Below are positions 25,586 to 44,700 of a DNA stretch of 64,000 bases, piece after piece. This DNA comes from Nitrospirales bacterium (GTDB lineage Bacteria; Nitrospirota; Nitrospiria; Nitrospirales; UBA8639), in contig OY820905.2 of the NCBI GenBank assembly GCA_963555755.3, forward strand, positions 3,488,001-3,552,000, read 5' to 3'. A program made the translations under genes and the position numbers. Position 1 is the stretch's first letter; each line of letters begins with the position of its first letter. The notes beneath the pieces are model-generated. The model made no database searches. It saw only the letters and a program-made list of their open reading frames with translations, and was not told the DNA's origin.

Positions 25586-27760
25586 TTACACAAGCCAATA
25601 GAAAAGCCCTATAGCTGCCACTAACCAAAAAATCATGACCAATAAATGGTGCTGAAGCGTCCGTGGTTCGATTCTCTGCAAAAGATGACCTGTTGCATCG
25701 GCCTCCCGTCCCAACCGTTCGACATTCTTTTCAATCCCGCGAATATCGATAACCTGCCAGAGCCACTGAGCCAGGTTCACGGTTTGACCACCAATCCCAA
25801 CTACCCTTCGATCAATGCCTTTGACATCCACTACTTGCCACAGCCAACGAGCGAGGCTCACGGTTTGACGCCCAATCCCAACCACCCCGCGATCTATTCC
25901 TCTGACATCTACAACCTGCCACAGCCATCTGGCCAACGTAACCGATACCCCAGCAATACCACTAATGAAGCGATCAATACCTCCAAGATCAACAGTCCGC
26001 CATAACCATGTGGACAATCGAAGTGTGGGTTGAATCACATAGACTTCGTAGATCTCATCAAAATACAATTTATTCAAAAAAAGTACATACAAAGTTTTTC
26101 CCCATTCCGACTGTGCCAGGAATGATGGTCGGGGTTTGATATGAAGGAAGTAGGCAAAACCCCATCCGCAAAATGCCACGACAAGCGGTAACATGATCCA
26201 CAAAGAGATTCCCCCAAACGTGGTCTGTTCATTGAGGAGTGGAACAGGCTGCCCCAATGCCGGTGCCAGGAATTGAACAAACCACCCCCACAACACCATG
26301 AGAACGCTCACCAACATCACGCCCGCAACGAAAAGTCCTACGAGGTGTGAAGGCGAAAACAACTGGGGCTGGACGACAAACGATTTCCCACCTTCCACAT
26401 CTCTGACTGAGGGTCCGCCCTGAAAGAATAAGAGGATTCCCCGAAAGAGATACATCGCCGTAAAAAAGACAGTGGCTAAGCCCATCACCCAAAAGACAGT
26501 TTTGGCTGAAGCAAAATTATGCACGGTCCACAAATATTCATAAGGCCCTGAAAAGATCACGAAAGGAGGAATGCAGGCTAACACCAGTGCGCCAACAGAC
26601 AAAGACCATGCTGGCCTCGAGGTCGGCCCATGGCCAACATCAGACTGAGGATGGCCGTGGGCTTGAACCGACCGTAGGGCGTTCCCTGTAGACAGGAATA
26701 AAAATGCTTTCAAACATCCATGAGCTAACACATGAAACGTCGCGGCCACAAACGCCCCAATGCCGCAGGTCATGATCATGAACCCAATTTGACTGATCGT
26801 GGAGTAAGCGAGAATCTTTTTAATATCGGTCTGCGTCAGTGAGACAATCGCCGCGAACAGAGCCGTCACCGCACCGACAACCGCGATGACGGTCATAGCC
26901 AGTGGCGAGAAAACAATCAACGGACTTAAACGAATGAGAAGGAAGGGCCCCGCATTCACCATGGTTGCCGCATGGATCAGCGCTGAGACAGGGGTGGGCG
27001 CTTCCATGGCAAACGGCAACCATACATGGAAAGGAAGTTGCGCGGACTTTCCCATTGCACCCATCAACAATAAAAGGGAAATCACTGTCAGGGTGTGAAC
27101 TGAGTATTCAAGCCCTATCCATCCCAACAGATTCATCGTATGCCCACGCATGCTGTCCGCCTGAATCAAAATTTGTTGAATGTCGAGAGTCCCAAATGTG
27201 GCAAAGGTCAGGATGATTCCGAACCCGAGTCCAACATCCGCAACGGCGTTGACTAAAAACGCTTTCGTGGCGGCCTGGCATGCTGATTGTCTTTGAGCAT
27301 AATGGGAGATCAAGAGATAGGAACAGATCCCCATGATCTCCCAACAGATAAACAACATGAGCAGGTTGCTACTCATCACCAACATCACCATGGAAAAGGT
27401 AAACAACGCGATGACCGCGAAGAAACGATTGTAACGGGGATCCCCGATCATGTATCGGGAAGAGTAGATGTGAACGATGCTGCTGACCCCTGTGACCAAC
27501 ATCAACAAGAGGACGGTGAGTTGGTCGATATACAGACCAAGGTCGACGACGAGATTTCCGGACTGAATGAAGCGGTAGAGAGGAACTGATATGGCTCCGT
27601 TCCTTACAACCTCAATGAATGCGCCTACCGACAATCCGAAGGATACACCTATCGCAGGAATCGCAACTTTGTGGCTTTTCTCTCCCACCCACCGCCCGCC
27701 CAACGCGAGAGTAAGAAACGCCACCAAAGGAAGAAGCGGGATCAGAACGTAAACTGACAT
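25586..27760 (-). CDS. NuoL/MrpA/DabB-like antiporter subunit with repeat-extended C-terminal helix
   Basis: WEIMGICSYLLI, KSAQLPFHVWLP.AMEAPTPVSALIHAATMV, KKILAYSTISQIG, HGCLKAFLFL. Confidence 0.92.
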   Translation of the reverse strand: MSVYVLIPLLPLVAFLTLALGGRWVGEKSHKVAIPAIGVSFGLSVGAFIEVVRNGAISVPLYRFIQSGNLVVDLGLYIDQLTVLLLMLVTGVSSIVHIYSSRYMIGDPRYNRFFAVIALFTFSMVMLVMSSNLLMLFICWEIMGICSYLLISHYAQRQSACQAATKAFLVNAVADVGLGFGIILTFATFGTLDIQQILIQADSMRGHTMNLLGWIGLEYSVHTLTVISLLLLMGAMGKSAQLPFHVWLPFAMEAPTPVSALIHAATMVNAGPFLLIRLSPLIVFSPLAMTVIAVVGAVTALFAAIVSLTQTDIKKILAYSTISQIGFMIMTCGIGAFVAATFHVLAHGCLKAFLFLSTGNALRSVQAHGHPQSDVGHGPTSRPAWSLSVGALVLACIPPFVIFSGPYEYLWTVHNFASAKTVFWVMGLATVFFTAMYLFRGILLFFQGGPSVRDVEGGKSFVVQPQLFSPSHLVGLFVAGVMLVSVLMVLWGWFVQFLAPALGQPVPLLNEQTTFGGISLWIMLPLVVAFCGWGFAYFLHIKPRPSFLAQSEWGKTLYVLFLNKLYFDEIYEVYVIQPTLRLSTWLWRTVDLGGIDRFISGIAGVSVTLARWLWQVVDVRGIDRGVVGIGRQTVSLARWLWQVVDVKGIDRRVVGIGGQTVNLAQWLWQVIDIRGIEKNVERLGREADATGHLLQRIEPRTLQHHLLVMIFWLVAAIGLFYWLV
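25685..26008 (-). repeat. 4 x 81-bp (27-aa) tandem repeat inside the NuoL-like gene
   Basis: WLW codons begin at 26008, 25927, 25846 and 25765, an exact 81-bp period. Confidence 0.95.
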
Positions 27761-27991: not shown

Positions 27992-29461
27992 TTACAGCCC
28001 CGCGGGCAGAGCTGAATCAAGCAAAAACCCTACAATGGGATCACTGAACAACCCTAAAAGGATGATCGCGGCTGACACAACACCTATACTCACTTTCATA
28101 GATAATGGCGCCTCAACAGAAATGATCCCTGAAGATGGTTGAGTATCACGAAAAATACGTTCAAAGAGCTTAATGAAATAGGCCAACGTCAAAACAGTAG
28201 AGATGATCACCGCCGCAACCGCGAGATAATTCTGGGCTTCAAGAGCGCCAAGGATGATATACCATTTGCCAAAAAATCCACCGGTTGGGGGAAATCCAAC
28301 CATCGACATGGCCATGATGATGAGCGCACCCGTCATCCATGGCGCTTGTCCTCGCAAACGGCCCAAATCCTCGATGGTCCGAACGCCATACTGATACATC
28401 GCGGCACCTGCCAGGAAAAAGAGGGCGGCCTGCATAACCGCATCATTGATTAAATAAAACACCCCTCCTGCAAAACCCGTCGGATTTCCAATACCGACCC
28501 CGATGAGGATCAACCCAATATGAGAAATCCCACCATAGGCGAACATTCGTTTAACTTCATGTTGTGTCAATGCCAGAAATGCCCCAACCACTGCGGCAAG
28601 GGCCCCCAACTCCACCAGAAGGAACAGGACTGGAACATGTTCAATTTCCGCATTCGCACCCACCACCCAAAACATGATCCGGATCCAGGCGAGTAAGGCC
28701 ACTTTGGTGACCAAAGAAGCGAGGAAAGGTGAAATGGCGTCCGGTGCATGAGTATAGGCATCAGGCAACCACCCATGAAGTGGCATGAGTGCCATCTTAA
28801 TTCCGAGGCCGAGGAACATGAAAATCAACCCTCCAACGATGGCTTTGGAAGTTAATAATTCAGGCACTCGCTGAGCCAAGTCCGCCATGTTGAGCGTTCC
28901 CGTCGCCGCATAAAAGTAGCCCACCCCTAATAAATACAAGGAGGCCCCAAGCGTGCCCAAAATGAGATATCGAAAGGCGGAGACGAGAGCTTTCCCACCT
29001 GCAACTCCTACCAGGGCATACCCGGATAACGCGGCAACTTCCAGGAACACAAACACGTTAAATAAATCCCCAGCGAAGACGATCCCTGTAACCGCTGCAA
29101 TCAACAAAAGGATCAAGGTGTAGTAGGGCACAATCCGTTGTCCAAGCGCAGAAGACGATGTCGGACCTGCATTGATCAAGGAAATCAATGCCAATAGGCT
29201 GAGGGTCACCATGATGACACTCGCCAGCCCATCATCGACCCATTCAATGCCAATGGGAGGCGCCCAGCCGCTGAAGGCATAACGAATTTCTCCTGAATCC
29301 ATGACGACGACAATATTGGCAATCGATGCGACACTCATGGCAGAGACAGCCGCTATTGCCATCGGTTGACACCACTCACGATGTTTCAATCCGACCATGG
29401 GCAAAGAGATGGCTGTCAAGAAGGGAAGCAGGAAGAGGAGCGCGGGAAGGTGATGACTCAT
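27992..29461 (-). CDS. mrpD: Mrp antiporter subunit D-like
   Basis: GWAPPIGIE, GDLFNVFVFLE, TGTLNMADL, IKMALMPLHGWLPDAY, PPTGGFFGKW. Confidence 0.88.
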   Translation of the reverse strand: MSHHLPALLFLLPFLTAISLPMVGLKHREWCQPMAIAAVSAMSVASIANIVVVMDSGEIRYAFSGWAPPIGIEWVDDGLASVIMVTLSLLALISLINAGPTSSSALGQRIVPYYTLILLLIAAVTGIVFAGDLFNVFVFLEVAALSGYALVGVAGGKALVSAFRYLILGTLGASLYLLGVGYFYAATGTLNMADLAQRVPELLTSKAIVGGLIFMFLGLGIKMALMPLHGWLPDAYTHAPDAISPFLASLVTKVALLAWIRIMFWVVGANAEIEHVPVLFLLVELGALAAVVGAFLALTQHEVKRMFAYGGISHIGLILIGVGIGNPTGFAGGVFYLINDAVMQAALFFLAGAAMYQYGVRTIEDLGRLRGQAPWMTGALIIMAMSMVGFPPTGGFFGKWYIILGALEAQNYLAVAAVIISTVLTLAYFIKLFERIFRDTQPSSGIISVEAPLSMKVSIGVVSAAIILLGLFSDPIVGFLLDSALPAGL

Positions 29462-29835
29462 TCCAATCTCTTCAAAATTTCATCTTCATCCAAGGTGCCA
29501 TATTTCCGATAAATCGCCGCGACCAAGGCCAAAGAGACGCCCAAGGTCGCGACCTGGACCACGATCGCCGTTAACGTCAAGACATGCGGTAATGGATTGG
29601 TATAGGTGGCAGCTTGGACTGGGCCTGTTCCGGACAACAGAATAGGAACCGTGGCTCCTGTTTTCGCACTGATTGCCACGAGAAAAAAAATCACGCTGGT
29701 CTGCACGATGTACATGCCAATGAGCTTTTTGACAAGGTTATGGTGGGTCACCATGATGTAGAAGCCCCAGAGAAACAGGATCACGAAGGCAATAAAGTTT
29801 GACCGGTGAAGCCACGTCTCAATGAGTTCAAGCAT
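29458..29835 (-). CDS. mrpC: Mrp antiporter subunit C-like
   Basis: NLVKKLIG, NPLPHVLTLTAIVV, YGTLDEDEI; ATG 29835 overlaps the upstream stop. Confidence 0.88.
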   Translation of the reverse strand: MLELIETWLHRSNFIAFVILFLWGFYIMVTHHNLVKKLIGMYIVQTSVIFFLVAISAKTGATVPILLSGTGPVQAATYTNPLPHVLTLTAIVVQVATLGVSLALVAAIYRKYGTLDEDEILKRLE

Positions 29836-30277
29836 GTGAGTCCTCGTCGTTGTCGTTGGACGACAAACTAAACACAATAGAGATAACCGTCACGGCGACA
29901 TCGACCGCTACACCAATTTGTGTCAGCATGATGCCCACATAACGGCGTGAAGCGACCTCGAGGCCGTAGATTTCGAGGGCGGCGTAATTCAAAAACTCCC
30001 CTCCCCCGATCAGACACAACCCACCGACCCCAGCAAATATCAGCAAACCAAGCCCATCACCATGCACCACCTTCTGCGCCACATTGCTATACGAAGCGTG
30101 AGGACCAAAAATGAGGATCGATAAAATCATACTCGTGCCAAAAATCACCCCACCCACAAATCCTCCCCCGGGGCCATACTGTCCAAAGAACAGCACATAC
30201 AATCCATACAATTGCATTAAGGGAATCAAGAGTCGTCCTAACATGAGAACAATGACACTATCGTGCGCTTGGATCAT
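29828..30277 (-). CDS. mrpB: Mrp antiporter subunit B-like (MnhB domain)
   Basis: GQYGPGGGFVGG motif; 4 TM. Confidence 0.85.
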   Translation of the reverse strand: MIQAHDSVIVLMLGRLLIPLMQLYGLYVLFFGQYGPGGGFVGGVIFGTSMILSILIFGPHASYSNVAQKVVHGDGLGLLIFAGVGGLCLIGGGEFLNYAALEIYGLEVASRRYVGIMLTQIGVAVDVAVTVISIVFSLSSNDNDEDSHA

Positions 30278-30804
30278 GCCTTGTTTCTCCTGAGCAACAA
30301 GGCACAGGCAATCCCGGCTGTAAAAATCACAACGGTCTCAAGCAACGTATCGAAAGCGCGGTAGTCCATAAGAACCGAGGTCACGACATTGGGGGTAAGG
30401 GTATCGTGCATACTGTTTTCCAAGTACACGGGAGAAATATGAACGCTTGCAGGAGAGGCAGGATCTCCAAATTTGGGAAGATCCTCGGCCGCATACAAGA
30501 GGAGAAAGCCAAGCAGAGGCAATCCGATCAACGCGGCCCAGGGAGGGGGCGGACGATGAAGGCGAGTATCCTTTGGAGCTGTCTCAAATAGCGTCAAGAG
30601 AAAAAACACCGTCCCCAAGCCCGCGCCCACGACTGCTTCAACAAACGCCACATCTACAGCTCCAATCCATGCCCACACCAACGCTAAAAAGAAACTGTAG
30701 GACCCCAAAATAAACACCGCTGGCACCAAGTCTTTGACCAGAATGGCTCCACCCGCTGTCAGAATCAGGAGAATCAGTAGAGGAATTTCAAATGAAAACG
30801 TCAT
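30274..30804 (-). CDS. DUF4040 / MrpB N-terminal-like subunit
   Basis: AVDVAFVEAVVGAG; PNVVTSVLMDYRAFDTLLE. Confidence 0.85.
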   Translation of the reverse strand: MTFSFEIPLLILLILTAGGAILVKDLVPAVFILGSYSFFLALVWAWIGAVDVAFVEAVVGAGLGTVFFLLTLFETAPKDTRLHRPPPPWAALIGLPLLGFLLLYAAEDLPKFGDPASPASVHISPVYLENSMHDTLTPNVVTSVLMDYRAFDTLLETVVIFTAGIACALLLRRNKA

Positions 30805-31100
30805 GGTTGTTCTCGCCCCCAAGGTTTGAGGCCAGAGCGAAGCGCCGCGCGAATGGTGGCATGTGAAACGACAGGATTCAATAGATACAGAAGAGCCAGA
30901 ACCACGAGAATTTTGAGCAGGTTCAAGCTGAATCCTTGGTAAATGGCCAACCCTGCCAATACCAGAAACGCACCCAAGGAGTCAGTCAGTGAGAGGGCAT
31001 GTGAGCGGGTAAACACATCTGGCAAACGCAGCATGCCAATGGCCGCGACGATCAGAAAAAACAATCCTGCGAGAATAAAAACGATGGCAATCAGAGACAT
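30801..31100 (-). CDS. mrpG: Mrp antiporter subunit G-like
   Basis: GMLRLPDVFTRSHA..D, NPVVSHA. Confidence 0.88.
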   Translation of the reverse strand: MSLIAIVFILAGLFFLIVAAIGMLRLPDVFTRSHALSLTDSLGAFLVLAGLAIYQGFSLNLLKILVVLALLYLLNPVVSHATIRAALRSGLKPWGREQP

Positions 31101-31367
31101 TTACGCCCTTCCTCGCTGTTCAAGAAATTTGGCAATGGCCAAGGCACCCACGAGATTGAGCAAGGCATATCCCGTGGAGATATCCACGAACATGTCCACC
31201 CGCCCATATACGGTCCCGATCACCACCAGCAAAATAATGGCTTTCGTCGAGATGCCATTGAGGCCCAACACTTGGTCAAACACTGTGGGGCCTTGGACCA
31301 CACGGTACAAATACGCCAAAATTAAGATCACAAGGACGATCAACACGAACAGAAAAAAGAATTTCAT
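31101..31367 (-). CDS. mrpF: Mrp antiporter subunit F-like
   Basis: RVVQGPTVFD, VDISTGYALLN, AKFL. Confidence 0.88.
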   Translation of the reverse strand: MKFFFLFVLIVLVILILAYLYRVVQGPTVFDQVLGLNGISTKAIILLVVIGTVYGRVDMFVDISTGYALLNLVGALAIAKFLEQRGRA

Positions 31368-31861
31368 GCTGAACCCTCTTGCTGCCGAAACACCTTGGCA
31401 ATTTTTTGTTCGAGCCGTTGACTGGTCAAATCATCGCCAGATGCATCATCCATCGCATGGACGATGAGTTCCTGAGCATTCACTTCAGCCGTGATCGTGC
31501 CAGGAGTCAGCGTAATGGAATTTCCTAGAAGAACGATGGCGGCTTGGCCCTGCAACTTGGTTCGGTAGTGAATAAGCTTCGGATCAATGGGAAGAGCAGG
31601 ATGAAGAATGAGGGCAGTCAGATGAAGACTGCTGAGCACAATGCGCCCAAAGAGCCACGGGAAATACCCCAAAATTCGCAACAGGGGTAAGTTTCGGAAA
31701 GGAGAGTCTGCGTGGCCTGAATTCAGCCAAGCCACGCCAAAAGACACCACGAGCCCGAGGCCCATATGAAACGGGTTATATTTTCCTGACAAAATGAGCC
31801 AAATGACAAAAAAAACCAAACTCTTCAAGATGAGTGTTTTATAGAGGCTAGAGTTCATCAT
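31364..31861 (-). CDS. mrpE: Mrp antiporter subunit E-like
   Basis: WLILSG, NSITLTPGT, VHAM. Confidence 0.88.
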   Translation of the reverse strand: MMNSSLYKTLILKSLVFFVIWLILSGKYNPFHMGLGLVVSFGVAWLNSGHADSPFRNLPLLRILGYFPWLFGRIVLSSLHLTALILHPALPIDPKLIHYRTKLQGQAAIVLLGNSITLTPGTITAEVNAQELIVHAMDDASGDDLTSQRLEQKIAKVFRQQEGSA

Positions 31862-31882: not shown

Positions 31883-34800
31883 CTACCCACCCGCGGTCAA
31901 CGCCATGTGTTCCCAAGTTGCATCAGGGTTATATCGATGAATCTCAAAGGTGTTGGGGTCCAGTGCAATAAGATTAAGCCATTGGTTATGGAAAAGCTGC
32001 TGAAGGATCGCGTGTTTTTGAACGATGGACGAGATGACACTCGGCATCGCTTCAATGATAGCCAGCAGCCGAACCGGTTCGTGGTAATGAACATCACCGT
32101 TGTTGACGGTCTGTAGGGGAAAGCCCATTTGTAAATCGCTTTGGCTTCCCAACATCATCCCAACACCACCCACCACATTGTGCAGAACCTTACTCCCACT
32201 GCCATAGACCCATGGGTCAACCGCCGAGAAATAATAGCCCAGATTAATCCACTCTCCGACAATCAAGGGCGCTGTCATAATTTTTTCGAGGATGGCGCCT
32301 TGGGGATCGGCAATTGGATCATAGGAATGTAAAAAGACACGGCCGCCCAAATTCAAGCCTTTGGTCAGCTTTCGTCTTCCAATTAAAAAGGCGGCATTTC
32401 CTGCCAGTCCCCATTCCGGACGAGGGTTGGCCCAATCGCAGCTACGTTCCTCCACATGAGCAAAGGCCTTTTCTGGAGAAATCTCTGTCGGAGCGTTTGG
32501 GATGCGACGGCACCGTTCCAGAGCCTGATTGGCTCCGGCTTCTTCGAGATCCTTGCGCAACACCTGTAAATCCTCTCTATGAGTTTCGGGAAATACTTCC
32601 AGGTCGTAAAACGTGACCCGATCAGTGGTGGTATTGTGCTTGCCCGGAAGAAACCAGGTGTCATCAGGAATGGGTAATCCCTTCTCTTTGAGGATGCGAC
32701 GAACTTCCGGCTCGTTGGCCATTGCGGCAAAGACGCGTGCGTTCGGATCCCCTGGAGCTCCACCGCACGCGCCACAATCCAATGCTCCAAAATAGGGATT
32801 GTTGTCGGTCTCACTGCCATGCCCACACAGGCAAACTAACCGACCATAATTTTGTGTGAGCCCCATCGCACGCAGTCCGTTTTCTATGAACGTGGCCCGT
32901 TCCGTCAGAGAGAAACCCTGTGAGAGCCCAACAGGAATCCCTTCAGCATTCACATCTCCTACTTTTGGGTGTTGAGGATCGGATGGTGCTGACACCGAAA
33001 TCTGTGTCGGCACCGTATGGGTAAACCAACCCCCGATGGTCGATGTGATTGCGTGAAATGGTTTTTGGAGCAGCGTTTTGCCAACCAGACCTAAACTAAA
33101 AAAGACCCCCAGCACATCAATCACCATCATCGAGCCAATCGGGTTATGCTTTAGATCGTGGAACAGATGATGACCGAGCTGATGCCAGCGCGTGCCAGAA
33201 GAATATTTTTGCAATGCCCGTTCTTCTCCCAGCCGAGGCACTTCTGTGACCGCATGGTTGGGTGAAAGTAACACAGGGCATAAGGCTAAACGTTGGTCAC
33301 TATCAAAGGCTTGATGACTGATTGGAATGCCAAAAAATCCGGCGAACCCTAAGGTTTCATAGGGGCCTTGGGCTTCAATATGGCGGCGAAATGATTCGGA
33401 TCGCACATCAATACAAAACACGAGTTGCGCCCGCGGGCGCATTTCTAAGGCCGGAACAGTCCCTCGATGCGCAGAAATTTTTTGAAGGATCTCCCCGCGA
33501 AAACCCTCTTCATACGCCTCGAGCCACACTGGGCCATGGCGATCTGCGGGAAAACCTTCCAGCCAACTCAACAAGGTCTGGGCATCCGAGAAGGAGAGGT
33601 CGTGCAGCTCTATTGGAGACAGCTCAAGAAACTGTGCAAGGTGAAACAACCGCCAGGCATCCCGGCAAATAGCCTGTGTCCGGGGATCAACAGCATGAGC
33701 GCTTTCCCTCACTTGGTTCTCATATTCATCCGGTCGATCCTGCCAAAAGGCGATCAACGCGGAAGCGGTTCCATCAATCCCCCACTCTCGCTGACAGATG
33801 ATTTGGGCCAGTTCCAGTTCATAGAACAGGCGAACGGCTAGATACTGTGTGGTGTCAATGGGGTGCTTGTGTTGCGCATGATACGCTGGATTTTCCCCAA
33901 GCCATCGAATGTACCGCGTCCAACCCGGCAATAATGATAACTGCCTTGACAGATAATCTTTCCATTGTTCTTGTGGGATTCCAAGACGATGCAAACTGGC
34001 TACGACTGCATCTTCAGGTTCGTTTGGAAGATCGTGGATTTTTTGTGAGAAATCTTTTATCCCAAGAAATGTTCCTGAATGATCTTGTTGAACCAATTCT
34101 CGCCAAGCCTGATAAAAGCCTTCGTGTCGTAAGGGCATTTCCCATCCGGCTAACCCTTCATCAAGAAAGGCCGCCACCCATTTGATGAGTTGACCGTTGA
34201 TTGACTCGACCAATGTTGTTCCGGCCAACACATCCACCCAATCGCTGAGCGTTCGCTGAGCTGGAAGCGAAATATTCAATTGAGCGTGAGGGTCATCTGA
34301 AACGCCAGAGAGGGAACTCCTCGATGTTGGATCGCTGGAATGGGCATCAGATAGTTGCAGGACGGCCAAAGTGCTCTTCCACAAATTTGTGAGATAGGCC
34401 TCCTCAGGATAATCTCGACAATGCTCACATTCTCTGATCGTTCGTTCGATGATTCGTTGCCGAGATTCATCTGAAAGGTCTTGACGAAAACGCTTGGTGG
34501 CCCTACCCCCACTGAGTTCCCATTGCAGGAGGGTTGTCTCACAAGGTTCAAACCCATGGACGAGGTGCAATGCCCAAATATCAAGGGCCGTCACCCGGCG
34601 GCTTCCTATTTGGACAGAATCTTGTTTTTCTGGTCGAGGTCCAACTCTCGCGAAAGCACGCTTGAGGCTTTCGGGGGTAATGCGACCATCTCGATAGAAC
34701 TGCCGATACTCTTCATTTGGCAGATACCCATTTCCGCCTACCAGGCGTTTGCCTTTTCGAACCGCCTGGTCAAACGGAAGATATTCCAATCCATGAATAG

Positions 34801-34924
34801 GATTCTGGGCGACCATCGTTCTCATAGGCCAAAACGGAGCAATCGGTTCGCTCGCCTGTTCAACAGTCTGTCGTACCTGATCGCGCTCTTCTTGGGAAAT
34901 CGTATTTGTGGAAGTGATGCTCAT
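31883..34924 (-). CDS. dabA: inorganic carbon transporter subunit DabA/MpsB (DUF2309)
   Basis: IAPFWP...NP, FCIDVRSE, GFAGFFG, CGHGS, LDCGACGG, HNTTTD, RPEWGLAGNA, GSGSKVLHNV, HEPVRL. Start placed at ATG 34924, downstream of the leader terminator. Confidence 0.95.
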   Translation of the reverse strand: MSITSTNTISQEERDQVRQTVEQASEPIAPFWPMRTMVAQNPIHGLEYLPFDQAVRKGKRLVGGNGYLPNEEYRQFYRDGRITPESLKRAFARVGPRPEKQDSVQIGSRRVTALDIWALHLVHGFEPCETTLLQWELSGGRATKRFRQDLSDESRQRIIERTIRECEHCRDYPEEAYLTNLWKSTLAVLQLSDAHSSDPTSRSSLSGVSDDPHAQLNISLPAQRTLSDWVDVLAGTTLVESINGQLIKWVAAFLDEGLAGWEMPLRHEGFYQAWRELVQQDHSGTFLGIKDFSQKIHDLPNEPEDAVVASLHRLGIPQEQWKDYLSRQLSLLPGWTRYIRWLGENPAYHAQHKHPIDTTQYLAVRLFYELELAQIICQREWGIDGTASALIAFWQDRPDEYENQVRESAHAVDPRTQAICRDAWRLFHLAQFLELSPIELHDLSFSDAQTLLSWLEGFPADRHGPVWLEAYEEGFRGEILQKISAHRGTVPALEMRPRAQLVFCIDVRSESFRRHIEAQGPYETLGFAGFFGIPISHQAFDSDQRLALCPVLLSPNHAVTEVPRLGEERALQKYSSGTRWHQLGHHLFHDLKHNPIGSMMVIDVLGVFFSLGLVGKTLLQKPFHAITSTIGGWFTHTVPTQISVSAPSDPQHPKVGDVNAEGIPVGLSQGFSLTERATFIENGLRAMGLTQNYGRLVCLCGHGSETDNNPYFGALDCGACGGAPGDPNARVFAAMANEPEVRRILKEKGLPIPDDTWFLPGKHNTTTDRVTFYDLEVFPETHREDLQVLRKDLEEAGANQALERCRRIPNAPTEISPEKAFAHVEERSCDWANPRPEWGLAGNAAFLIGRRKLTKGLNLGGRVFLHSYDPIADPQGAILEKIMTAPLIVGEWINLGYYFSAVDPWVYGSGSKVLHNVVGGVGMMLGSQSDLQMGFPLQTVNNGDVHYHEPVRLLAIIEAMPSVISSIVQKHAILQQLFHNQWLNLIALDPNTFEIHRYNPDATWEHMALTAGG

Positions 34925-34956: not shown

Positions 34957-35055
34957 AAAAAAAGCCAACCGCTTTTACCTCCTGTTCAGAGGACCACGGT
35001 TGGCTTGCACTGTGGCTGACCGTATTCACCTAGCGAGTCAACCACCCCACAGCCT
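34957..35055 (-). promoter_or_regulatory. candidate cis-regulatory RNA (hairpin + AGUGCAA + intrinsic terminator) in the dabA leader
   Basis: Minus strand GCUGUG-GGGUGG-UUGAC..GUCAG-C-CAC-AGUGCAA-GCCAACCG...CGGUUGGC-U7; same architecture at 38120-38218. Confidence 0.75.
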
Positions 35056-35220
35056 ATGTTGAAAGGTTAGGCTCAATCCTAGAATTCCTGCCACCCTCAG
35101 CTGAAACCCGTGAAGGAAGCAGGGGCCTATCCTTGACCTCTCAAAAATCAATAGCTTATATCATCTTTTTTAGCAAGGACTCTTGGTCGGAACAAGAGAT
35201 TTTTAGTCAGCAGGAGACTA

Positions 35221-35628
35221 TTGCCCATGGGTTATGGACAAAGCAAAGGCGAGGCGGAGACAGCCATCCGCAATGCCATCATTAAATTCGAACAAGAATT
35301 TATGGGACGCGGGCCAACGGACGTCAAAGCCTTCATCCTTCGTGACATGGTCTTGGTGAGACTGAAAGGGGTGTTAACTCCAGCGGAACGCCAACTTGCC
35401 AAGAATCCCGAAGGTGTTGAAATGGTCAAACAGATGCGACAAAACTTGATCTCACAAGGGCGAGAAAAACTCTGTAGCCAAATTTCCGCTATTACCGGGA
35501 CCGAGGTCACAGGATTATTTACCGATATCGAGACCCAAATCGGTGAACGCGTGATGGTCTTTACCCTCGAAAACGACCTTGACGCGACCTTCCGCGAGCC
35601 CTCAACTTTTTCAAAAACTTCACAGTAG
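35221..35628 (+). CDS. DUF2294 (MpsC/YbcI-like) protein
   Basis: SKGEAE..I..AIIKFEQEFMGRGP..VK...DMVLVRLKGVLTPAE..L, LFTDI....GERVMVFTL. Confidence 0.9.
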   Translation: MPMGYGQSKGEAETAIRNAIIKFEQEFMGRGPTDVKAFILRDMVLVRLKGVLTPAERQLAKNPEGVEMVKQMRQNLISQGREKLCSQISAITGTEVTGLFTDIETQIGERVMVFTLENDLDATFREPSTFSKTSQ

Positions 35629-35790
35629 TTTGGAAAGAATATAGACAATTCGGTCCCGTGATCCTTCGGAGGAGGATTGGGGAAAAATAGGATTGTAAAC
35701 AATACCAGAGCGGTGACAAGAGGTTTGTCCCAGGGACGGGCGACCGGAAGCAGGCAAACGGCGAGAGGTGAGCGGAGAGAATCGATCTAT

Positions 35791-35946
35791 TTAGAAAATC
35801 TTAGCAAGCAACGCGCGGATTGGATTCACAGGCGCTTCAGAATGTGAAGGACTTTTGTTTTCGGAGGATGAAGCGTCCTTTTCGACTTTCTTCGTGACCT
35901 TTTGATCACGATGAAGACTTCTGTACAAGAGATCAAAATCACTCAT
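35791..35946 (-). CDS. 51-aa small protein (below ORF-track cutoff)
   Basis: GGAGG RBS; MSDFDLLYRSLHRDQKVTKKVEKDASSSENKSPSHSEAPVNPIRALLAKIF; sigma54 promoter upstream. Confidence 0.7.
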   Translation of the reverse strand: MSDFDLLYRSLHRDQKVTKKVEKDASSSENKSPSHSEAPVNPIRALLAKIF

Positions 35947-35984
35947 GATATTCCCTCCAGGTAATTATCAATTACCTATAACAA

Positions 35985-36129
35985 AGCAAAGATGATGCCA
36001 AATCCCACAAAGATAATTTTTCAGAAAATTGATAAAAAACAATAACTTATGAATGCAAAATGGCTTATTGAATAACAACAATTCATCAATGAGCAAAGAC
36101 GCACAGGTTCGAATGAGCGAATTCGCACA
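35985..36129 (-). promoter_or_regulatory. sigma54 promoter with two upstream activator-like sites
   Basis: Minus strand TTGGCATCATCTTTGCT (GG-N10-GC); TGAGC-N6-GCACA boxes at 36090-36105 and 36114-36129. Confidence 0.7.
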
Positions 36130-36295
36130 CAAATGTTGAAATCTGATCTAGAGAGGAGGGTGAAGAAGTACACTAGAAGGCCAGGCGTGGCGATGCGCCG
36201 TCAAGAGAAAGAAGAGTGGAAAAGTGTATAAACCTGCATTTCATCTTTCCGGCACTGTCAGGTAAAAGAAAGTCCTATGAAGAGAAATCCTCCTT

Positions 36296-36392
36296 TCGTC
36301 ATCCTCGCAATTTTTAAGCGGGGATCCATCTGCTTTTTTTCCTGGCAGAAACAGCAAGATGGATTCCCGCTAACGACCGGCGGGAATGACGG
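36296..36392. repeat. REP-like inverted pair downstream of sulP
   Basis: CGTCATCCTCGC...GCGGGGATCCATC and GATGGATTCCCGC...GCGGGAATGACG. Confidence 0.65.
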
Positions 36393-36417
36393 GGCAAGAG
36401 TAAAGTTACCTCTTTCT

Positions 36418-38082
36418 TTATGAATCGTGAAGGTCCTTTTGCCAGAGTTTTGGCTTCTTATGAGCAGCGACGATAGAATCAGCAATGGGTTGATGCTCTG
36501 CTAACCCCCGAACCAATAATTCACAATCTTTTTCCTCGAATTCTATAATCCATTCATAGAGCTTGGACATCACGGTGTGATCGACTAATCGAGTGTCGGC
36601 GAAATTCAGCCTGACGTTTTTTCCTTCTTCCAGGTAGCGATGAAGATACTTGCGCAACGGGATCCAGGTGCTAAAAACAGCTGAATCTTTCACATAGATG
36701 GTCACGGTGTTGTCATCTGATTCGACAACCTCAACGTTCAATTTGAAAAACGAGGAAACCGGGGCTCCATTGATGAGATGAATAACCACTTTCACTCCGA
36801 TCCCAATAGCAATGCCTTTCAGAAGATCAGTTGCGAGGACTCCCACGATCGTAGACATAAAAACAATGAACTGGTCTTTTCCCAAATGATACATGTGGAC
36901 AAATTCTTGGGGTGACGCCAATCGAAAACCCGTAAAGACTAACAATGCGCCCAAAGCCGCCAACGGGATTTGATTGATCAGCCCGGGGATTAAAGCCACA
37001 AACACCAATAGAAAAAGCCCATGATACATATTGGCAAACCGCGTCCTCGCTCCATTGTCGATATTCGCCTTACTTCGAATAATCTCTGAAATCATCGGCA
37101 ATCCACCAACCAAGGCCGCCAGCGTATTGCCGACACCCACCGCAAGCAAATCTTGATCCATATTTGTCTTTCGTCCCCAGGGATCAATACCATCAATCGC
37201 CTTCGCACTGAGCAACGACTCCAGGCTCCCGATTAACGCAAACATGATCACGTACTTTATGCCGATCGAAGTCGTGAGCCCCGAAAAATCGGGAAGGGTC
37301 AGAGCACTGAACATGTTTTTCGGAACATTCACCAAGAACTGTGTTCCTAAGACATATGTCTGATCATGAAAGGCATACGTTCCTTCCTGTCCTACACCCA
37401 AAAATAGCCCCAGAGGAACGGCGACGAACAACACGATCATCGGCGCCGGCACGATTTTCAATTTTTGATTTTTGATGAAGGTATACCCAAACATGATCAG
37501 TATGCTCACAATTCCAATTAAGCCAATTTTTGGATTCATCTCCATCACAAATGTTGGGAAGTTGGCTAAGAGGTCTAATGGTGTCCCTTCAGAACTAAGC
37601 CCCATCATGATCGGAAACTGCTTGGCGATAATGATGACCCCAATGGCTGCCAACAATCCATGAATCGCCGTCGTTGGGAAAAACTCTCCCAGGATCCCTG
37701 CCCGGAACACCCCAAGGAAAATTTGAAGAACACCAGCGGCGACCCCAACGCCCAGAGCCAACCGGTACGCTTGGTAATCCGCTGCCGGATCCTTTCCTCC
37801 TGTAAAACCAAATTCAGTGACGCAGCCAATCGCGATGACAATGAGCCCCGCAGCTGGGCCTTTAATCGTGAGTTCGGAATTACTGAAGAACGTGGCTAAG
37901 AGACCACCGATGATGGCAGTAAAAATTCCAGAAATGGCTGGATACCCACAGGCTAAAGAAATGCCGAGGCACAGGGGAAGGGCAATGAGAAACACCAGAA
38001 ACCCAGACAGAAGATCTTCCGGGAAATGCGCTCGCAGCCCTGCGAGATTTCCTTTTGGTATGGATGCAGTGTTTGATTGCAT
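36418..38082 (-). CDS. SulP/SLC26 family anion (probably bicarbonate) transporter with STAS-like tail
   Basis: DLLSGFLVFLIALPLCLGISLACG, IKGPAAGL, ESLLSAKA, GGLPMISEIIRS..N; start at ATG 38082, after the leader terminator. Confidence 0.92.
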   Translation of the reverse strand: MQSNTASIPKGNLAGLRAHFPEDLLSGFLVFLIALPLCLGISLACGYPAISGIFTAIIGGLLATFFSNSELTIKGPAAGLIVIAIGCVTEFGFTGGKDPAADYQAYRLALGVGVAAGVLQIFLGVFRAGILGEFFPTTAIHGLLAAIGVIIIAKQFPIMMGLSSEGTPLDLLANFPTFVMEMNPKIGLIGIVSILIMFGYTFIKNQKLKIVPAPMIVLFVAVPLGLFLGVGQEGTYAFHDQTYVLGTQFLVNVPKNMFSALTLPDFSGLTTSIGIKYVIMFALIGSLESLLSAKAIDGIDPWGRKTNMDQDLLAVGVGNTLAALVGGLPMISEIIRSKANIDNGARTRFANMYHGLFLLVFVALIPGLINQIPLAALGALLVFTGFRLASPQEFVHMYHLGKDQFIVFMSTIVGVLATDLLKGIAIGIGVKVVIHLINGAPVSSFFKLNVEVVESDDNTVTIYVKDSAVFSTWIPLRKYLHRYLEEGKNVRLNFADTRLVDHTVMSKLYEWIIEFEEKDCELLVRGLAEHQPIADSIVAAHKKPKLWQKDLHDS

Positions 38083-38119
38083 TAAAATGGACTTTCTTAA
38101 TCCCTCAACACACTGGCAC

Positions 38120-38218
38120 AAAAAACCAGTCAGAATTCAGGGAGACCCTCCACGAATCCTCAACTGGCTTGCACTGTACCTGGGCTTAAACATCTGAAAC
38201 CCAGCTACCCTACCTACC
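38120..38218 (-). promoter_or_regulatory. candidate cis-regulatory RNA in the sulP leader (same motif as dabA leader)
   Basis: Minus strand GUA-GGGUAG-CUGGGUUU..AAGCCCAG-G-UAC-AGUGCAA-GCCAGUU...GACUGGU-U5. Confidence 0.75.
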
Positions 38219-38350: not shown

Positions 38351-38463
38351 AAAACTCGAAATCCGAATATCGAAATTCGAAACAAATCAGAAATCCTAAA
38401 TTCGAACTTTTCAATTGGGATATTCCCATGTGTTTCGGATTTCGATATTCGTGCTTCGGATTT
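38351..38463. repeat. heptamer-based inverted repeat cassette, copy 2
   Basis: AAACTCGAAATCCGAATATCGAAATTCGAAAC...GTTTCGGATTTCGATATTCGTGCTTCGGATTT. Confidence 0.75.
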
Positions 38464-38615
38464 ACGCTCTTATTCTTCCTCCATCAACAAAGAGAACGCA
38501 AATATTTTGAAAAAGCTATAAATAGCCGACAGCACAATTGAGGAAATCAGGGATGGCTTGCCTAAGTATATCGAACCATGCGCAATGAGGGGTTCACAAA
38601 AGGTCGGACGACGAA

Positions 38616-39230
38616 TCACTCCAGCGGGACTTCAAGGACGAGTCCGCCCATCACATCATTCAATTTGAAATCACGTTTGGTAGATTCGGTATGCGCATTA
38701 TGGCAAGAGACGCAGGCACGGCTGACAGCGCGATCTGGGTAGATCGCTTTAAAATACGGTTTGTTGTTGACCATAATCTCTTCCTCAACCACTTCCCCAA
38801 ATTTCACGACCTGGTCTAACATCTCACGCTCATGGTCCGAGGCCGGAGTATTTCGTGAATTGAGGGGCCAAGGACTGATCAGGCGATAGCGAAAGGGCGC
38901 ATCCCGGACATGAAGACTGCGAGAGGCCTCGCGCAAAAACTGAACGGGCAGAGGCAGGGTCTTTTCTTTCACCCAATTTTCAGAGGCCGTCACAATAAGC
39001 ATGGCTTCCATCCGCTCAACAATATGTTGCGTATAAAATGTCCGATCCGCTTCAATAACGGCATGAAGATAATCTGCTGCCGTACGAGCAGGAATAAAGT
39101 TAGCTGGAGGGATCTGAGATCGGATGCCCCATCCTAAACCCATTCCCACTATTAGCATGAGAACCGAGAGGCCTATCAGTCGGACATTCATGCTTATTCC
39201 ATCACCTTTCTTCTCATCTACTGGAATCAT
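38616..39230 (-). CDS. DUF3365 (Tll0287-like) c-type heme protein
   Basis: TM/signal segment, DRTFYT, PLP, YRLIS..PLN, ACVSCHN, FKLNDVMGG. Confidence 0.85.
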   Translation of the reverse strand: MIPVDEKKGDGISMNVRLIGLSVLMLIVGMGLGWGIRSQIPPANFIPARTAADYLHAVIEADRTFYTQHIVERMEAMLIVTASENWVKEKTLPLPVQFLREASRSLHVRDAPFRYRLISPWPLNSRNTPASDHEREMLDQVVKFGEVVEEEIMVNNKPYFKAIYPDRAVSRACVSCHNAHTESTKRDFKLNDVMGGLVLEVPLE

Positions 39231-39364
39231 ACGAAACGGATTTTACTAAAAGACTGAATCAAGGGCCTATCATACCTGAACACAATCTTCCCCACCAGAG
39301 GAAACGGGAGCGGTTGTGTTTGACACTCAGGGAGGGCAACCTTAGGATACGGTCCAGGCTAACC

Positions 39365-41293
39365 ATGCGTATTTTTAAACGATTTAACAACCTTCCGATC
39401 GAGAAAAAACTTCTCCTTGTCTTGGTGATTCCCATTCTCGGTTTGGGAGTGCTCAGCTTCGTCACCTATAATAGCGTTCAAACCTTCTCCCAAGATGAAG
39501 ACCGTCTAAACAGGGTGTACCACGTGCAAACCACCGCTGCCGAATACATGCGACTGATTGTCGATATAGAAACAGGTTTTCGTGGGTTTGTGGTGACCCT
39601 TCAGCCGAAGTTCTTGAAACCCTACCACGCCGCCAAGCAACGAGTGTTGCAGGTGGGGCAGGCTCTTGCGTACATGGTGGAGAGCAATCCGGAACAACAT
39701 ACTGAAATTCTCAAAACCCAATCGTTAGTTCAAACATTAATGAAAGACAAAGATCGATTGATTGCACGTGCCACGGAAGGCCATCCCGATGAAGCGCTCC
39801 ACTACATTGAGTCGGGAGAAGGGTGGCAACTGATGTTAACCATTCGCGAGGAACTCTCCAAATTCAATCGTCGCGAGGGCGAAGTCCTCAGGGAAACCTT
39901 AGGGCGAACCGCACAAGATCGTTCATTTCTTTTGAGTGTGATTCTTGGCGGCGGTTCACTGGCACTCATCCCCATGGTGATTGCGTTACGGGTGTTAGCC
40001 CAGTCTATTACGGGCCCCTTAGTCACCCTGGCCAAGACAGTCGAAAACCGACCCGGTGGGATCGTCCCCGAGGTCACAGTCTTAGACCGAGGAGATGAAA
40101 TCGGCGACTTAACACGCGTCATGCATGAGATGAGTCGACAAATTCATGAGTACATTACCCAAGTTCAAAAATCCGAAGCTGAACTCAGAACATTAAACCT
40201 TGACCTGTCGACTTCAGAGTCCAAATACCGAGGCATTGTTGACCATGCCCCCTTTGGAATTTTCACGGCGAAACAAGGACGAATTATTTTTAGCAACCGA
40301 CACAATTGGATACTCGCCGGACGCAATCCCGAAGACGCGAGCAACCCCGAAGAAATCTGGGACGCGATCCACCCGGATGACCGAGAACGCGTGTCTCAAA
40401 CATTTTCTGACGCATTGGACCAACATGTGCTCTTTGAGAGCGTCTTTCGATTTCTCCACCCAGACGGCACCATTCTCAAAATCTTAAGTCGGGCTATTCC
40501 CATTCAGGATGCAGAGGGTCAAGAAATTTTGTATCAAGGTTTCAATGTTGACATTACCACGTTAGAGCAAATGCGAGAACAACTCAATCGCACCGAACAC
40601 CTGGCCACCTTGGGCCAGGTCGCGGCAGGCATTGCCCACGAAATCCGAAATCCCTTGGTCGGCATTGGCTCCACCACGTCATTATTAATGGAGGACTTTT
40701 CTCCAGGAGATGCCCAACACGAAGACCTGTTGACCATTCTTAAAGAAACCCGACGACTTGATCGCATTGTGAATCAAATCGTGGAATATGCCAGACCACA
40801 GAAATTGGTCCTGTCCTCCTTTCACATGAAATCGTTGATTGAAGAAACGTTGGAACTGGTCCAAACTCCTATTGCACAGAAGGGAATTCACGCCGCATTG
40901 GACTGTGCACCCGACCTTCCATTGATTCAGGCAGATCGTGACCAAATTAAACAGATTGTGCTCAATGCCCTTCATAATGCCATTGATGCCCTCAAACCCG
41001 AAGGAGAGCTCTCCATCGACATACAAGAAAAAACTCAAGATGGGGGACAAGGCGTGGTGGCGCATATCCAAGATAATGGCAAAGGCATTTCACCGGAAGA
41101 CCTTTCAAAAATTTTCGATCCATTTTTTACCTCTGGAAAAGAACGAGGCACAGGCCTTGGACTGGCCATCTGTCGGAATATCATTGACGCCCATGGAGGA
41201 ACCCTCAATGCCACCAGTCAAGTGGGAATCGGGACGGTATTCTCCGTGTGGTTACCCTTTACCTTACAAAACCAATCTGCCATGGTGACCTAA
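39365..41293 (+). CDS. sensor histidine kinase (CHASE3-HAMP-PAS-HisKA-HATPase)
   Basis: DIETGFRGF...FLKPY, DEIGDL, IHPDDRE, AHEIRNPL, DNGKGI, GTGLGL. Confidence 0.93.
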   Translation: MRIFKRFNNLPIEKKLLLVLVIPILGLGVLSFVTYNSVQTFSQDEDRLNRVYHVQTTAAEYMRLIVDIETGFRGFVVTLQPKFLKPYHAAKQRVLQVGQALAYMVESNPEQHTEILKTQSLVQTLMKDKDRLIARATEGHPDEALHYIESGEGWQLMLTIREELSKFNRREGEVLRETLGRTAQDRSFLLSVILGGGSLALIPMVIALRVLAQSITGPLVTLAKTVENRPGGIVPEVTVLDRGDEIGDLTRVMHEMSRQIHEYITQVQKSEAELRTLNLDLSTSESKYRGIVDHAPFGIFTAKQGRIIFSNRHNWILAGRNPEDASNPEEIWDAIHPDDRERVSQTFSDALDQHVLFESVFRFLHPDGTILKILSRAIPIQDAEGQEILYQGFNVDITTLEQMREQLNRTEHLATLGQVAAGIAHEIRNPLVGIGSTTSLLMEDFSPGDAQHEDLLTILKETRRLDRIVNQIVEYARPQKLVLSSFHMKSLIEETLELVQTPIAQKGIHAALDCAPDLPLIQADRDQIKQIVLNALHNAIDALKPEGELSIDIQEKTQDGGQGVVAHIQDNGKGISPEDLSKIFDPFFTSGKERGTGLGLAICRNIIDAHGGTLNATSQVGIGTVFSVWLPFTLQNQSAMVT

Positions 41294-41294
41294 C

Positions 41295-42698
41295 ATGCGC
41301 GCAACCATTTTTGTTACAGATGATGATGATGCCGTTCGAGCAGCGATCACTCGACGATTATCGCGAGGAGGCGTTCACGAAGTACGCAATTTTGACTCAG
41401 GGGAAGCGCTCCTGGAAGCTCTGGATCATGATATTCCCGACATCGTCCTGCTCGACCTTAAAATGACCGGCATCAGCGGTCTGGAAACCCTCAAGCTCCT
41501 CCGCCCCAAAGCCCCACACACCTTAGTCATTCTTCTCACTGCCTTTGGCACAGTTGAGGATGCCGTCGAAGCCATGAAGCTCGGGGCCTATGATTTTTTG
41601 ATCAAAAGCGTTGATCTCTCTGGAGTCAATCCGGTAGTCCAACGTGCCGTGGAATATCTAACCTTAAAGCGCCGCGTCTTGTTCGAATCAGAAGACGTCT
41701 CCAATCGTTATGCCTTCAACAATCTCATTGCCAACAGCGCCAGCATGCGAGAGCTCATGTCCCAAGTACAAGAGCTCACAAATAACACGAAAACGACGGT
41801 CTTGTTACAAGGTGACACTGGGACCGGAAAGGAATACATCGCCCGAATTCTTCATCACAACGGACCTCGCAAAGACGGCCCATTTGTCGGAGTCAACTGC
41901 ACCGCCATTCCCCAAGAATTATTTGAAAGCGAGTTATTTGGCTATGAACGCGGGGCGTTTACTGGCGCGACTCACCGAAAACCTGGGTTATGCGAACAAG
42001 CGGAAGGGGGCACCCTGTTTCTTGATGAAATCGGCGACCTCAATCCGTCCTTGCAAGCCAAACTGTTACGTGTCCTCCAAGAACGATCGTTTCGCCGACT
42101 GGGTGGTCAAGAAGATATCGAAGTTGATTTCCGTCTAATCGCCGCGACGAATCGCGATTTGAAAAAAGAAGTCAGCCAGGGCCACTTTCGAGAAGATTTA
42201 TTCTTTCGCCTCAATGTCGTGGCCTTGGAACTTCCACTTCTTCGCAATCGGGTTGAAGATATTTCACCATTAAGCCTTAGTTTTCTGTGTCAACACAGCA
42301 AAGACATTGGCAAAGACATCACGAACATCGAAGACGAAGCACGTGGCATGCTTGAACGCTACGACTACCCCGGCAATATTCGCGAATTGGAAAATATCAT
42401 TGAACGCGCTGTGATTTTTTGTAAGGGCAAATCATTAATGTCCGGGGACTTGCCACGAGAACTCCATGAAAGCAGTTCAAGGAAGGTGGTTGAAGCCTCA
42501 ACACAACACGACCAACAAATTTTGCGCATGGAAATGGTCTTAGGCGAACAATCACTCGCTGACGTTGAAGCGGCCATCATCGAAGAAGCCATGAGCCTAT
42601 GCGGACACAACAAAAGCTTAGCCGCACAAAAACTCGGACTCACTCGGTTCGCACTCGATCGCCGTTTAAAGAAAACCTCTGAAGAAGGGGAAGAATAA
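41295..42698 (+). CDS. sigma54-dependent response regulator (NtrC family)
   Basis: REC (DDDD, LLDLKM), [32 protein letters not shown], Fis-type HTH. Confidence 0.95.
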
Positions 42699-42713
42699 CC
42701 TGGAAGGTCGAAG

Positions 42714-44369: not shown

Positions 44370-44520
44370 GGTCGTCAAACAACGCTTCCAATGCTCGGGC
44401 AAGAAAAAGAAAAACAGGACTAGAAAAATAAGAAAACTCGCAAGGTTAATGGGATCAATCCCAATTTTGGTGGAGTAAGGCGAAACCCTCTTACACTCCG
44501 CTCGTATCACCCCTCGTCCA

Positions 44521-44700
44521 TTGTCATTTTGACCCTTGGGAGAACTCTCCCCCATTCCCGCCCGGGTCACGTTCTTTCGGGCCAAGCGATTTCTCCTTGC
44601 ACTCGAAATGACAGAAGGAAGCCTTCTAGTTGTTCATCCAACCAGACTTGCTCCTTACCACTTCCGCCTCTTGTCATTTCGACCCTTGGGAGAAATCTCG
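44521..44700. repeat. REP-like repeats
   Basis: TTGTCATTT(T/C)GACCCTTGGGAGAA twice, plus an inverted GATTTCTCC...CGAAATGACAG. Confidence 0.6.

Follow-up and report, generated by a model that had tools for sequence, protein, structure and literature searches.

Two transporter genes on the minus strand of a Nitrospirales genome, dabA and sulP, are each preceded by a structured leader RNA, raising the question of what this shared element is and what reads it. Both genes lie in a 64,000-nucleotide stretch (assembly GCA_963555755.3, contig OY820905.2, positions 3,488,001 to 3,552,000; hereafter the window). The original prediction, made from the letters of this stretch, held that the two leaders share one architecture, that a 13-mer is identical in both (35001-35013 and 38165-38177), and that each leader ends in an intrinsic terminator with a stem extension and a U tract. 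Sequence and fold bear out all of this. Our results show that the leader belongs to a real and uncatalogued family of attenuators, and we discuss as its candidate reader MpsC, a DUF2294 protein encoded between the two leaders.

The hairpin of the sulP leader is composed of a basal GG:CC helix, an internal loop, a 3-bp helix, a GG/AG internal loop and a variable stem. It is longer than originally described, extending outward to the basal helix and a second internal loop, and its core measures 53 nt in the dabA and sulP copies alike. In both leaders the 3' end of the hairpin (AA-GCC) doubles as the first part of the 5' arm of the terminator, which combines an interrupted stem extension with the U tract. 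Both leaders beat 200 of 200 shuffles in folding (z -4.07 and -3.91), and enforcing the basal helix costs 4.8 kcal/mol in the dabA leader and 4.0 kcal/mol in the sulP leader. Without a helper the terminator fold is thus ahead by 4-5 kcal/mol, so that the predicted default state is termination (OFF). The likely start codons of dabA and sulP (Table 1) leave both leaders untranslated. The shared 13-mer occurs a third time in the genome, there with neither hairpin nor terminator, and among 20,000 pairs of 99-nt segments drawn at random from the genome, 7 had a word of at least 13 nt in common. A sigma-70 promoter was sought for both leaders and none was found. In one metatranscriptome dabA, mrp and sulP were covered by sparse contigs at a depth of 2-6, and in two others by none; contigs cannot reveal termination.

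How far does this element extend beyond the two sites? A covariance model, R1, was built from eleven seeds chosen by pattern; the loose pattern, which gave background levels over 151 genomes, was used only for choosing seeds by eye. In the window's genome, R1 finds only the dabA and sulP leaders (150 of 1663 candidates scored). Across the order, it matches 104 of 150 genomes at E<=0.05, two of them through short weak matches in genomes lacking DabA, and it matches 70 of 80 metagenomic mpsC loci. The family consensus, drawn from 62 rows, reads GGC-N(1-2)-GUA-GG-GY-stem-RC-AG-URC-AA-GCC. In this alignment of 62 distinct rows, which was fitted to R1 and contains one spurious weak match, 10 of the 16 pairs are changed on both sides and 88% of cells pair, and covariation exceeds 500 of 500 shuffles and every slid control. 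The unfitted seed alignment stands above shuffles for cells changed (0/500) but not for pairs changed (37/500). Conservation, not covariation, backs the basal GG:CC helix, and the loop bases GG/AG and the 3' AA are nearly invariant within the order. The outer pair singled out originally as covarying, GUG/CAC versus GUA/UAC, is a genuine compensatory pair, but it ranks among the weakest of the family and is unpaired in 19 of 61 rows.

The covariance-model search and the downstream-gene tally for which the original prediction had asked place the element at carbon-uptake genes. Among 107 distinct copies, 100 precede a NuoL/DabB-like gene (59, one of them a spurious match), sulP (23), dabA (12) or mrpE (6), and the other 7 lie close to contig ends; six loci were left out of this count. 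In 90 of the 107 copies, the terminal GCC takes part in pairing at the base of the terminator. A dispersed repeat, one of the outcomes named beforehand as speaking against a regulatory role, was rejected on copy number (two in this genome, 1-4 per genome across the order) and on the carbon-uptake gene context; another, a lack of covariation, is contradicted by the compensatory pairs. Outside the order, R1 returned just two weak sites in 124 genomes of the phylum, both without a terminator, and neither was accepted as a family member. A strict pattern scan of 8 of the 64 parts of the genome collection gave 120 loci, 3 of them true copies; the motif-bearing named records belong to Nitrospira, Nitrospirales or Nitrospirae, and no sulP relative was found in viral contigs. 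In one genome lacking mpsC (G020), a weak copy with a terminator (L326:1501-1549) precedes an unrelated 421-aa open reading frame, by eye a DegP-type protease.

Comparison with catalogued RNAs, including those that the original prediction had wanted checked, gave no match. Rfam 15 recognizes a group II intron as its sole match in the whole window, and returns nothing at either leader at E<=10, nothing in 20 homologous loci, and nothing at E<=2 in 20 mpsC loci from Bacilli, Planctomycetes and deltaproteobacteria. The Na+-I riboswitch model (DUF1646, RF03071) does not match either leader at E<=10, and its best hit in the genome (21.6 bits, 150 of 1019 candidates scored) lies elsewhere. The Li+ riboswitch models nhaA-I (RF03057) and nhaA-II (RF03038) likewise miss the leaders (150 candidates scored per genome search), and the Na+-II riboswitch, a rare nhaA-I variant, was compared only through its parent model, with no match. 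The leaders do resemble Na+-I and Li+ riboswitches in being small, in overlapping a terminator, in being predicted ON switches and in preceding ion-transport genes (PMC9337991 for Na+-I; here and below, statements from cited papers refer to the excerpts available). However, the Na+-I riboswitch has a second hairpin, P2, with a conserved GGGGUG loop (Rfam consensus; PMC9337991, PMC9646797), whereas the leader RNA is a single hairpin, and the Na+-I P1 base, GGUUGGGC...UUUCAAG, is absent from our 62-row consensus. The original proposal of an attenuation element tied to inorganic carbon, pH or Na+ is thus upheld as to a conserved, covarying leader at carbon-transport genes, with Na+ as the weakest candidate signal because the Na+-I consensus differs and misses both leader sites. 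Searches of open-access literature on DUF2294/MpsC/YbcI, on bicarbonate and Na+ riboswitches and on Nitrospira DabA and SulP returned no description of the leader RNA, and the available text of a 2025 antiterminator review mentions neither MpsC nor CO2 nor bicarbonate (PMC12591593).

Which factor, then, accompanies the leader? The original prediction had left the choice between a riboswitch and a protein-bound antiterminator open, and had not mentioned mpsC. This gene, divergent and situated between the dabA and sulP leaders (Pfam, E 2e-37), is present as a single copy in the genome. Among 133 DabA-positive genomes of the order, leader and mpsC occur together in 94, the leader alone in 8, mpsC alone in 7 and neither in 24, counts whose p-value is overstated since kin are not independent. 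An unfiltered search found leaders in two of the seven mpsC-only genomes (G145, G058), and two more carry stops inside mpsC; an intact mpsC with no detected leader is seen in 3 of 99 genomes. The leader was sought in 9 of the 24 double-negative genomes, and none was found. Two of the eight leader-bearing genomes without mpsC show damage, G096 having lost the terminator and G053 being decayed. A protein search detected no MpsC in five of the eight, namely G096 and four of the six with intact leaders; three of these four are single-contig assemblies. Where a genome lacks mpsC, has a single dabA and carries sulP directly before it, an intact leader terminator is missing in five of five cases, and mpsC-less genomes with a second dabA keep the leader terminator in three of four, although numbers are small. 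The terminator is thus sometimes gone where mpsC is gone (G096 and the five single-dabA genomes), which we count in favor of MpsC as an activator. Decaying remnants of mpsC are visible between sulP and dabA or beside dabA/dabB at L332, L337, L338, L327 and L343.

The same association recurs in other phyla. mpsC is present in 110 of 201 Bacilli and in 33 of 151 genomes of the class that includes Pirellulales, and an Anoxybacillus plasmid record carries mpsC, a hairpin, a terminator and sbtA in this order. At the 30 best mpsC loci of each group, a base descriptor, GG-N(2-4)-3bp...3bp-RRN-CC, overlaps 14 of 66 terminators in Bacilli and 7 of 39 in Planctomycetes, versus 6 of 329 control terminators from the window's genome; it was written after inspection of those Bacilli and Planctomycetes loci. 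Behind the Bacilli hairpins, genes for SbtA and DabB predominate; the exceptions encode TrkH, isocitrate dehydrogenase and a major facilitator superfamily permease. At three Planctomycetes loci a second copy of mpsC follows the hairpin with this base, which elsewhere stands ahead of other or unassigned genes. Genes for SbtA, DabB and carbonic anhydrase lie behind a related hairpin type in Planctomycetes, and 9 of the 35 reading frames behind the hairpins have no Pfam match. As the varied downstream genes of Bacilli indicate, mpsC goes with the leader rather than with one transporter.

A second covariance model, R2, built for Bacilli, covaries in 10 of 13 pairs (0/500 shuffles) and matches 18 of 45 MpsC-positive and none of 35 MpsC-negative Bacilli genomes. 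Of these 18, eight contributed training rows, another six are their close kin and a further two are weak, chance-like matches, leaving G348 and G352 as independent. New R2 sites lie away from mpsC, such as one at sbtA, 11 kb away, in G368. Applied crosswise, R1 found nothing in the Bacilli and Planctomycetes loci and R2 did not match the leaders of the window. Because the two models miss each other's sites, homology across phyla rests on the base architecture and the mpsC context, not on model score, and from these sequence features we infer a common ancestry of the hairpins.

Several other arrangements were observed at these loci. At L361, mpsC and the hairpin stand ahead of a TrkH cation transporter gene, off the carbon theme, and L372 looks similar. 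In several Bacilli (L362, L363, L364, L369, L373, L380, L381), mpsC is itself preceded, at a distance of about 190 nt, by a longer structured leader of a different kind that has its own terminator, giving a terminator-mpsC-terminator-transporter layout; those scanned had no Rfam match. A second hairpin type, which ends in ACAUAG-GCC before the terminator, occurs in a deltaproteobacterial genome and in Planctomycetes (L351, on the minus strand after mpsC; L382, L383, L385, L393, L396, L399, L407). Hairpins stand in tandem at L389, L390 and L396, and those of the Bacilli type at L423/L434. In Planctomycetes L386, L397, L401 and L408, the leader stands before a second, divergent mpsC paralogue.

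How might MpsC act on the leader? We lean, with somewhat better than even confidence, towards MpsC as a candidate BglG-like antiterminator that responds to inorganic carbon and opens the switch under carbon limitation. With no helper, the terminator would form and transcription would stop before dabA-mrp-dabB and sulP. When inorganic carbon is short, MpsC would bind the conserved internal loops of the hairpin, and the bound hairpin would keep the terminator base from closing, permitting read-through into both targets. The signal is probably CO2/HCO3- or the ensuing pH, sensed by MpsC, and the control activation rather than repression. The co-occurrence of mpsC across three phyla, together with the change in RNA sequence, favors a protein partner over an aptamer for Na+, pH or bicarbonate, as a core RNA sequence that differs between phyla is easier to reconcile with a co-evolving protein than with an unchanging ligand pocket.

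This proposal draws on known antitermination systems. The ribonucleic antiterminator (RAT) of BglG, SacY and LicT is a hairpin with two conserved internal loops whose 3' end is common with a terminator that is more stable by default (PMC5393181). The leader also has two internal loops, a variable apical part and a 3' end that overlaps a more stable terminator, and the putative regulator gene adjoins its target. It differs in being about 53 nt long, versus 29-33 nt for RAT (PMC5393181), and in controlling inorganic-carbon transporters, not phosphotransferase-system sugar genes. The neighboring protein, MpsC, comprises PF10057 only and carries neither a CAT nor a PRD domain; no genome-wide search for CAT proteins was made. 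By analogy, the leader matches the BglG/LicT system in logic, not in size or partner. HutP of the B. subtilis hut operon is likewise a small single-domain alpha/beta protein, and behind its gene lie first a terminator and then the targets, as at Bacilli mpsC loci (PMC12591593); however, HutP acts as a hexamer, binding NAG triplets and destabilizing the terminator (PMC12591593), and it appears neither in the top 50 fold matches listed for MpsC nor as a PDB sequence match. The predicted structure of MpsC (predicted local distance difference test, pLDDT, 91.7) consists of a helix, two strands, two helices and two strands, with a conserved GRGP motif, R28, R45, K68, R71, R79 and several acids. No PDB sequence match, no Foldseek match at E<=0.001 and no ESM Atlas match was found, and the best VIA structural match (Z 6.5, 3.2 A, 85 residues) is within the common range. 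In S. aureus, MpsC of mpsABC (YbcI, PF10057) is of the same family and near DabAB/MpsAB; it is described as dispensable for transport, growth and complementation and of unknown function, and mpsA is lowered at 5% CO2 (PMC6689103). The open-access papers searched yielded no RNA role for it.

Several observations weigh against MpsC as the antiterminator. Six of the eight mpsC-less leader genomes keep hairpin and terminator (G020, G026, G043, G052, G101, G134). The sulP leader is detectable in one of nine mpsC-less genomes, yet in only four of ten hand-picked mpsC-intact ones, a control that weakens decay of the sulP leader as a specific sequel of mpsC loss. As mpsC adjoins the dabA/dabB leader, one deletion removes both. 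In Bacilli, 27 of 45 MpsC-positive genomes have no R2 match and most matches are training genomes or close kin. The structural model of MpsC is unlike any known RNA-binding antiterminator, and the window's protein is acidic (pI, isoelectric point, 5.6). The overlap with the terminator spans 3-5 nt, versus 6-10 nt in RAT (PMC5393181), S. aureus ΔmpsC has no growth defect (PMC6689103), and no such hairpin precedes mpsA in the one staphylococcal record examined.

These observations bear on four other explanations. An ON riboswitch, in which the hairpin by itself is an aptamer for HCO3-/CO2, pH, Na+ or a metabolite reporting carbon status and mpsC is merely co-inherited, would account for the near-invariant loop bases, for the Na+-I-like terminator overlap (PMC9337991) and for the six intact leaders without mpsC, and the six copies before mrpE alone would fit Na+ or pH. 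Yet the alignment contains a single hairpin and no second conserved element, the core sequence varies between phyla, none of the 35 MpsC-negative Bacilli has an R2 match though three carry SbtA, and the mpsC of the window is divergent rather than behind the leader, so that an RNA acting by itself fails to explain why mpsC is kept almost only with it; we regard this explanation as unlikely, though the strongest of the four. The sign of control could also be reversed, the hairpin folding first and allowing read-through by itself and MpsC promoting termination when carbon is plentiful. Normal growth of S. aureus ΔmpsC in air (PMC6689103), intact leaders without mpsC and the small energy gap between the folds would all follow, but equilibrium favors the terminator without any protein, and the lost or broken terminators of several mpsC-less genomes look like compensation for a lost activator, making this sign rather improbable.

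Slightly less probable again is that the hairpin is read by another protein, for example a general RNA-binding or elongation factor, with MpsC serving as a sensor or accessory upstream or on the transporters. The absence of a recognizable RNA-binding fold in MpsC and the persistence of leaders without mpsC agree with it, but among the families checked, with no systematic partner search, only mpsC recurs beside the leader in three phyla. Finally, the element could attenuate constitutively, serve in RNA processing or stability, or be a repeat, with no regulated switch; against such an unregulated element stand the conserved unpaired loop bases, the fixed register of terminator overlap in most copies and the restriction to two genomic copies, both ahead of carbon-uptake genes, and we consider it very improbable.

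The coordinates of the leaders and of the genes around them are given in Table 1. By Pfam, dabA, seven mrp-type genes and a NuoL/DabB-like gene follow the dabA leader, and sulP follows its own; bicarbonate is presumably the substrate of SulP, as we take it from family knowledge and context. The mrp-type genes lie between dabA and the NuoL/DabB-like gene, possibly specifying a Dab-Mrp hybrid complex, and in some relatives mrpE has its own leader copy. An imperfect palindromic repeat (38352-38465), which lies upstream of the sulP leader at a distance of about 130 nt, has about 61 genomic matches, resembles miniature inverted-repeat transposable elements or repetitive extragenic palindromes and shows high depth in one DNA run; another palindromic repeat, immediately downstream of sulP (about 36285-36395), matches at 9 further places. 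Adjoining sulP, the region 38616-44585 encodes a Tll0287-like haem protein, a CHASE3/PAS histidine kinase, a sigma-54 response regulator and an adenylate/guanylate cyclase with PilZ (Pfam). The group II intron is a D1-D4 fragment at 55956-56182 (119.7 bits, Rfam).

Table 1 Leader elements and genes of the dabA-sulP locus, in window positions.
Feature	Position	Strand	Remarks
dabA leader hairpin, predicted antiterminator	35002..35054	-	same family as sulP leader; R1 58.2 bits (training sequence)
dabA leader intrinsic terminator	34957..35006	-	U tract 34957-34963; terminator fold ahead by 4.8 kcal/mol
sulP leader hairpin, predicted antiterminator	38166..38218	-	R1 64.6 bits (training sequence)
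sulP leader intrinsic terminator	38120..38170	-	U tract 38120-38125; terminator fold ahead by 4.0 kcal/mol
sulP, SulP/SLC26 anion permease (PF00916)	36418..38082	-	Pfam; likely start ATG 38082
mpsC/DUF2294 (PF10057), 133 aa	35227..35628	+	divergent from dabA; candidate RNA-binding antiterminator
dabA, inorganic carbon transporter subunit (PF10070)	31883..34924	-	likely start ATG 34924
mrpE, F, G, MbhD/E-like, B, C, D-like antiporter genes	27992..31861	-	directly 3' of dabA; operon inferred from spacing
NuoL/DabB-like membrane subunit (PF00361 + PF00662)	25586..27760	-	Pfam

To our knowledge, inorganic-carbon sensing in bacteria beyond cyanobacteria and proteobacterial autotrophs is largely open. 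The available text of a 2026 B. subtilis preprint states that the mechanisms by which carbonic anhydrase and bicarbonate importer genes are expressed remain to be explored. More tentatively, and with rather less than even confidence, we suggest that MpsC/DUF2294 proteins form a new family of RNA-binding antiterminators that sense CO2 or bicarbonate directly and, with the hairpin, govern an inorganic-carbon regulon (DabAB, SulP, SbtA, Mrp and more) in Nitrospirota, Bacillota and Planctomycetota. The question is directly testable, given a compact hairpin, a terminator and a protein of 130 residues. If true, the system would prove to be a new family of antiterminators or else a riboswitch for bicarbonate/CO2, and in both cases it could be used as a CO2 biosensor. 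It would constitute a previously undescribed bacterial control of CO2/bicarbonate uptake at the RNA level, give a function to the widespread orphan family DUF2294 and explain how carbon uptake is controlled in the nitrifying Nitrospirales.

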